A stretch of 530 nucleotides of DNA from Escherichia coli. GTDB taxonomy: Bacteria > Pseudomonadota > Gammaproteobacteria > Enterobacterales > Enterobacteriaceae. The notes below the pieces were generated by a model that was given only the letters and a program-made list of their open reading frames with translations, had not been told where the DNA came from and did no database searches. The stretch is taken from assembly GCF_003334765.1 (NCBI RefSeq), contig NZ_QOWT01000114.1. One strand, given 5' to 3'. Below, piece after piece: positions 1 to 530 of this stretch (position 1 is its first letter; each line of letters begins with the position of its first letter). A program made the position numbers and the translations under genes.

Positions 1-57
1 GTCCTTCATCGCCTCTGACTGCCAGGGCATCCACCGTGTACGCTTAGTCGCTTAACC
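1..57 (-). rRNA. rrl: 23S ribosomal RNA, 5'-terminal fragment (gene continues beyond the window start)
   Basis: The reverse complement of 1-57 reads GGTTAAGCGACTAAGCGTACACGGTGGATGCCCTGGCAGTCAGAGGCGATGAAGGAC, which I recognise as the canonical 5' end of enterobacterial 23S rRNA. Mature 5' end placed at plus-strand position 57 from recalled E. coli sequence, not from a search. Confidence 0.93.
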
Positions 58-164
58 TCACAACCCGAAGATGTTTCTTACGATTCATCATCGTGTTGCG
101 AAAATTTGAGAGACTCACGAACAACTTTCGTTGTTCAGTGTTTCAATTTTCAGCTTGATCCAGA

Positions 165-177
165 TTTTTAAAGAGCA
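165..177 (-). promoter_or_regulatory. Spacer boxA-like transcription antitermination element (NusB/NusE binding site in rrn transcripts)
   Basis: The minus strand reads 5'-TTGCTCTTTAAAAATCTGG-3' across 160-178. Its core TGCTCTTTAAAAA matches the boxA consensus TGCTCTTTAACAA at 12 of 13 positions. A second boxA in the 16S-23S spacer is an established feature of E. coli rrn operons. Confidence 0.65.
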
Positions 178-217
178 AATATCTCAAACATCACCCGAAG
201 ATGAGTTTTGAGATATT
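178..217 (-). other. Extended imperfect hairpin in the spacer RNA with a C(UUCG)G tetraloop
   Basis: Plus-strand 178-188 (AATATCTCAAA) is the perfect reverse complement of 207-217 (TTTGAGATATT), giving an 11-bp outer stem. Inside it, CATC (189-192) pairs with GATG (200-203), with a 3-nt bulge at 204-206. On the transcribed strand the apex reads CAUC-UUCG-GGUG, a stable tetraloop closed by C-G with a U-G wobble. Confidence 0.6.
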
Positions 218-250
218 AAGGCAGGTGACTTTCACTCACAAACCAGCAAG

Positions 251-326
251 TGGCGTCCCCTAGGGGATTCGAACCCCTGTTACCGCCGTGAAAGGGCGGT
301 GTCCTGGGCCTCTAGACGAAGGGGAC
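251..326 (-). tRNA. gltT/U/V/W: tRNA-Glu (anticodon UUC), complete 76-nt gene with encoded 3' CCA
   Basis: The reverse complement of 251-326 is GTCCCCTTCGTCTAGAGGCCCAGGACACCGCCCTTTCACGGCGGTAACAGGGGTTCGAATCCCCTAGGGGACGCCA. It has a 7-bp acceptor stem (GUCCCCU/AGGGGAC), a 5-bp anticodon stem (CCGCC/GGCGG) and a 7-nt loop CU-UUC-AC; the anticodon corresponds to plus 290-292 (gaa). The T-arm GGTTCGAATCC and terminal CCA (plus 251-253) are present. It matches the E. coli tRNA-Glu of the spacer-Glu rrn operons. The paralog cannot be decided from this window; minus-strand placement would fit gltW of rrnG only if the contig follows K-12 orientation. Confidence 0.97.
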
Positions 327-497
327 ACGAAAATTGCTTATCACGCGTTGCGTGATATTTTCGTGTAGGGTGAGCTTTCATTAATAGAAAGCGAACGGCC
401 TTATTCTCTTCAGCCTCACTCCCAACGCGTAAACGCCTTGCTTTTCACTTTCTATCAGACAATCTGTGTGAGCACTGCAAAGAACGCTTCTTTAAGG
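327..497 (-). other. 16S-23S internal transcribed spacer, proximal part (16S to tRNA-Glu)
   Basis: Lies between the 16S 3' end (498) and the tRNA-Glu 5' end (326) on the same strand. No ORF or independent signal; contains a 7-bp perfect palindrome at 340-356. Confidence 0.9.
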
Positions 498-530
498 TAA
501 GGAGGTGATCCAACCGCAGGTTCCCCTACG
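498..530 (-). rRNA. rrs: 16S ribosomal RNA, 3'-terminal fragment (gene continues beyond the window end)
   Basis: The reverse complement of 498-530 reads CGTAGGGGAACCTGCGGTTGGATCACCTCCTTA, the conserved 3' end of bacterial 16S rRNA including the anti-Shine-Dalgarno CCUCC. Mature 3' end placed at plus 498. Confidence 0.95.

Follow-up and report, generated by a model that had tools for sequence, protein, structure and literature searches.

The 530-nt stretch of Escherichia coli DNA analysed here (the window) is almost certainly the internal transcribed spacer between the 16S and 23S genes of an rRNA operon, of the tRNA-Glu type and in its long, rrnB-like form, lying on the minus strand. Every testable defining feature of a tRNA-Glu-type enterobacterial 16S–23S spacer was found in it. 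The content of the window is already known: it is an ordinary, well-studied rrn spacer with nothing new within. The value of the analysis is that of a negative result. Because a textbook locus explains every base, the window can leave the lists of candidate novel systems. The spacer is also useful in practice for strain typing, since the polymorphism between long and short forms of a block upstream of the tRNA, together with a mosaic sequence pattern, records gene conversion between rrn operons.

Gene content, boundaries and genomic location

ARAGORN identified a single gene in the window, a tRNA-Glu with the anticodon UUC at 251–326 on the minus strand, whose 3′ CCA is encoded. The Rfam tRNA family was matched at 254–326 on the same strand (cmscan, 60.1 bits), and RefSeq annotates a tRNA-Glu at the corresponding position in the loci that were examined. 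The gene is identical to gltT, gltU, gltV and gltW of K-12 and invariant in all four copies.

The two rRNA ends were located by an Rfam scan that was run permissively, including hits below the gathering score. On the minus strand, positions 1–57 align to positions 1–57 of LSU_rRNA_bacteria (E = 1.8e-07), and positions 498–530 align to positions 1501–1533 of SSU_rRNA_bacteria (E = 1.1e-05); both hits are cut by the window end. Their scores of 30.2 and 26.0 bits fall short of the gathering score of 50, because just 57 and 33 nt of the respective genes fall inside the window. These are the first 57 nt of the 23S rRNA and the last 33 nt of the 16S rRNA, the latter including the anti-Shine–Dalgarno sequence CACCUCCUUA at 498–507 (minus strand). 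As determined by script, the reverse complement of the window equals positions 8001–8530 of a public locus of 100% identity (L001), so that the RefSeq boundaries can be transferred directly. They place the 16S end at window position 498 (L001 8033) and the 23S start at position 57 (L001 8474), the same boundaries as those obtained with Rfam. As is characteristic of enterobacterial tRNA-Glu-type spacers, both rRNA ends flank the spacer on the same strand. The total spacer length is 440 nt; on either side of the tRNA gene it consists of a 16S–tRNA interval of 171 nt (327–497, minus strand) and a tRNA–23S interval of 193 nt (58–250, minus strand).

The initial annotation had described the window as a 16S–tRNA-Glu–23S spacer on the minus strand and as a core housekeeping locus. 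The first of these statements is borne out by ARAGORN, Rfam, megablast and RefSeq annotation: the tRNA-Glu was called at exactly the coordinates that had been proposed for it, 251–326, and the rRNA covariance models align at both window ends, albeit with scores below gathering. The second agrees with the gene calls, the megablast matches and the RefSeq context of identical loci. The earlier account is thus refined and not contradicted, the refinements being the assignment to E. coli and to the rrnB type, the 171-nt length of the 16S–tRNA spacer, the signals within the spacers and the mosaic nature of the sequence.

The match to rrn operons that the initial annotation had anticipated was found by megablast in all 5426 of 5426 complete E. 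coli genomes; the median genome has 7 matching places, as many as E. coli has rrn operons (PMC4696680). Among the complete E. coli assemblies, 11 records match the window at 100% identity over 530/530 positions. Two of these 11 records were inspected, those of strains FORC 064 and H3, and in both the exact match sits in rrnB, between murI and murB. The gene order at these two identical loci, L001 and L002, is murI, 16S, tRNA-Glu, 23S, 5S and murB. With two of the 11 exact matches inspected, some strains could have a sequence identical to the window in a different rrn operon.

Of the 38043 places that match the window, ten fall on plasmid records of E. coli assemblies. These copies of rrn spacer sequence could be either assembly artefacts or genuine rrn fragments. 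At a distance of some 7 kb from rrnE, the interval between iclR and aceK of strain FORC 064 holds a gene (L007 9825–12011) that the annotation names EspL4, a type III secretion effector; this gene has no connection with the spacer.

Processing and antitermination signals

Both spacer ends are complementary to sequences beyond the window, for which the identical locus L001 supplied the flanks. On the 16S side, the pairing partner is the 16S leader, which falls outside the window, upstream of the 16S gene. RNA duplexfold of L001 6330–6491 against 8034–8110 yielded a leader–trailer duplex of −69.9 kcal/mol (z = −9.0 versus 300 shuffles). The trailer strand of this RNase III processing stem spans L001 8038–8105, equivalent to window 493–426 (426–493 on the minus strand). 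This complementarity agrees with the published 16S leader–trailer helix, which is essential and is cut by RNase III (PMC10250234).

On the 23S side, duplexfold of L001 8400–8480 against 11365–11472 gave a duplex of −54.0 kcal/mol (z = −5.2 versus shuffles), in which 27 consecutive leader nucleotides are paired (L001 8454–8480, equivalent to window 77–51). The leader strand of this predicted RNase III substrate (51–77, minus strand) comprises nucleotides 1–7 of the 23S rRNA and 20 nt of spacer. Its 27-bp core agrees with the published 23S leader–trailer helix, which is likewise 27 bp long and cut by RNase III (PMC10250234).

The interval between the tRNA and the 23S gene folds better than its shuffles (z −4.7). 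It contains a boxB-like hairpin of 16 bp with a cUUCGg tetraloop at 178–217 (minus strand; inverted repeat I1), which appears in both the MFE and the centroid fold and is located immediately upstream of the spacer boxA. The window was aligned with the four tRNA-Glu spacers of K-12 MG1655 (rrnB, rrnC, rrnE and rrnG). In K-12 rrnG, 3 of the 16 pairs of the hairpin are kept through changes on both sides, and 98.8% of cells are paired, compared with 30–50% for slid controls. The spacer boxA, UGCUCUUUAAAAA, occupies 165–177 (minus strand), differs by one mismatch from the leader boxA TGCTCTTTAACAA and contains the published consensus UGCUCUUUA; a match was seen in 0 of 200 shuffles. Like the tRNA and both rRNA ends, boxA is invariant across the window and the four K-12 spacers. 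The consensus has been reported in both leader and spacer regions, with boxB preceding it (PMC6614797). Judged by its sequence and the adjacent hairpin, the boxB–boxA signal of tRNA-Glu-type spacers is present in the window, and boxA is predicted to be a binding signal for NusB/NusE.

Two further observations concern these hairpins. In K-12 rrnG (L006), the boxB-like hairpin differs in its inner stem and in its loop, with GUUA instead of UUCG, and the hairpin that immediately precedes the 23S gene, at about window 79–94, shows substitutions and a 9-nt deletion. A direct repeat, D1 (63–84 and 193–214), was rejected as a repeat element, as it consists of two hairpins that share the loop-closing AUCUUCGGGU (cUUCGg tetraloops).

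Transcription within a pre-rRNA, the antitermination function and the enzymes are proposed here from what is established about the rrn operons of E. coli, in part cited above. The window would be transcribed within a single pre-rRNA from upstream rrn promoters. Ahead of the 23S gene, boxA would recruit NusB/NusE together with the other components of the antitermination complex, and the spacer boxB–boxA would let the Nus-factor antitermination complex re-form on RNA polymerase before 23S is reached. The stretch directly following 16S would pair with the 16S leader, and that directly preceding 23S with the 23S trailer; RNase III would cut both leader–trailer helices and release the rRNA precursors. 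RNase P would then free the tRNA-Glu at its 5′ end, with trimming at the 3′ end, and spacer fragments such as StyR-44 would be by-products.

StyR-44 (Rfam RF01830) was matched at 65–173 on the minus strand over the full model (1–107 of 107), the score of 124.9 bits exceeding the gathering score of 54. The matching region takes up the greater part of the sequence from boxA to the 23S helix. StyR-44, known as npcRNA 44 of Salmonella Typhi, is a 109-nt RNA that was cloned from the spacer upstream of 23S and is part of the ribosomal operon (PMC2943607). The window resembles it in the full-length match and in its place immediately upstream of 23S, as in every rrn operon; it differs in that the window is from E. 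coli, whereas the family comes from Salmonella. The family itself is a spacer fragment, not a demonstrated regulator.

Recovery of StyR-44 as a discrete RNA, with northern-blot signals in S. Typhi and E. coli and with growth-rate regulation, could be taken to mean that the StyR-44 region encodes an independently functional small RNA and not a by-product of the pre-rRNA; its discoverers, however, could not rule out a metastable intermediate of rRNA maturation (PMC2943607). The same could be proposed for a 106-nt block at 327–432, given that both this block (z −2.8) and the tRNA–23S spacer (z −4.7) have folding scores that would fit such a role. However, boxA, the hairpins and the 23S leader–trailer helix already account for the structure of the StyR-44 region, while about half of the E. 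coli genomes, and most rrn operons, lack the 106-nt block. We know of no target or phenotype for either candidate, and we consider an independent small RNA unlikely.

The 106-nt block upstream of tRNA-Glu

The block (327–432, minus strand) lies directly upstream of the tRNA and is the variable part of the spacer. It is present in rrnB and rrnG of K-12, to which it is identical at 106/106 positions, and absent from rrnC and rrnE (11/106 aligned identities), which carry about 20 unrelated nucleotides in its place. We take the block to be probably the rsl spacer loop of rrnB. This rsl ('ribosomal spacer loop') was reportedly described by Harvey et al. in 1988 as about 106 nt of extra sequence in the 16S–tRNA-Glu interval of rrnB that operons with the short spacer lack.

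Among the complete E. coli genomes, 2791 of 5426 contain the block, with a median of one place per genome and a maximum of 7. At least one genome has it in 7 places, which suggests either that every rrn operon of this genome carries the block or that the strain was engineered. The predicted fold of the block has two hairpin domains (−31 kcal/mol, z = −2.8), and no Rfam family matches it (cmscan). A terminator scan of the window returned one plus-strand site, at 339–357, compared with 0.6 expected from shuffles. The site was not significant and was rejected, being the antisense of a hairpin within the block. A promoter scan of the window returned 0 promoter-like sites.

The block could be a functional RNA module, as opposed to neutral spacer, that for example modulates the timing of tRNA-Glu or 16S 3′-end processing from the operon carrying it or yields a stable small RNA. 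We regard such a role as very unlikely. Being absent from about half of the genomes and from most operons, the block is dispensable.

The presence or absence of the block varies both between operons and between strains, and the block contains the internal inverted repeats I2 and I3, as might be expected if a small MITE- or REP-like element, mobile or inserted, had landed in the spacer. Its distribution argues against this origin. All 4008 of the 4008 block places in complete E. coli genomes lie on chromosomes, with none on plasmids and a median of one per genome; 11 of 12 sampled places adjoin an annotated tRNA-Glu, and the block was seen only in the context of rrn spacers. Moreover, the replacement of about 20 nt by 106 nt is not a clean insertion with target duplication, and gene conversion between rrn operons fits the distribution that was observed. 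With its copies staying in the rrn context within E. coli, a mobile element was rejected as a highly improbable explanation.

A short protein encoded in the spacer can be given practically no credence: with a minimum of 20 aa the window has ten ORFs (20–33 aa), but any 530 nt would be expected to contain as many, the longest (33 aa; 280–381, minus strand) overlaps the tRNA gene, all of them lie inside non-coding pre-rRNA and nothing points to translation. The earlier statement that neither a protein gene nor a mobile element or defence system would fit in the window holds. Further Rfam matches, to SNORD24, mascRNA-menRNA, ceN33, Tymo_tRNA-like and Plastid-psbl-rps4, were treated as chance. They are far below their gathering scores (E 0.13–0.86), and these eukaryotic or viral families overlap the tRNA or spacer hairpins.

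Comparison with the K-12 rrn operons

The text of PMC4696680 describes rrnD as the tRNA-Glu type and rrnE as the Ile/Ala type, whereas the RefSeq annotation of MG1655 (L005) has a tRNA-Glu gene, gltV, in rrnE. The two operons seem to have been swapped in PMC4696680.

The window is most like two of the K-12 operons. With rrnB (rrsB–gltT–rrlB) it shares the position between murI and murB, as seen in the exact-match strains, the 440-nt spacer, the 171-nt 16S–tRNA interval, and an identical 106-nt block and tRNA. It differs from rrnB by seven single-base differences, at window positions 483, 477, 226, 223, 222, 127 and 80, and at all seven (7/7) the window carries the state of K-12 rrnE. With rrnE (rrsE–gltV–rrlE) the window is identical at 98/98 positions on the 16S side and at 326/326 positions from the tRNA into the 23S gene. 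The latter segment is also 326/326 identical to the rrnE of the exact-match strain FORC 064. In contrast to the window, however, rrnE has a short 16S–tRNA interval of 85 nt, without the 106-nt block.

Judged by this alignment, the window is mosaic, with rrnE-like flanks around a 106-nt block of the rrnB/rrnG type. Gene conversion between rrn operons, measured in E. coli at a rate of ~3.6e-4 per genome per generation (PMC8022953), best accounts for the positions at which the window departs from K-12 rrnB. Because rrn gene conversion is this frequent, the mosaic pattern is an expected outcome (PMC8022953). Both the polymorphism of the 106-nt block and the mosaic are ordinary for rrn operons, and the window compares with the K-12 set as an rrnB-type long spacer whose flanks match those of rrnE.
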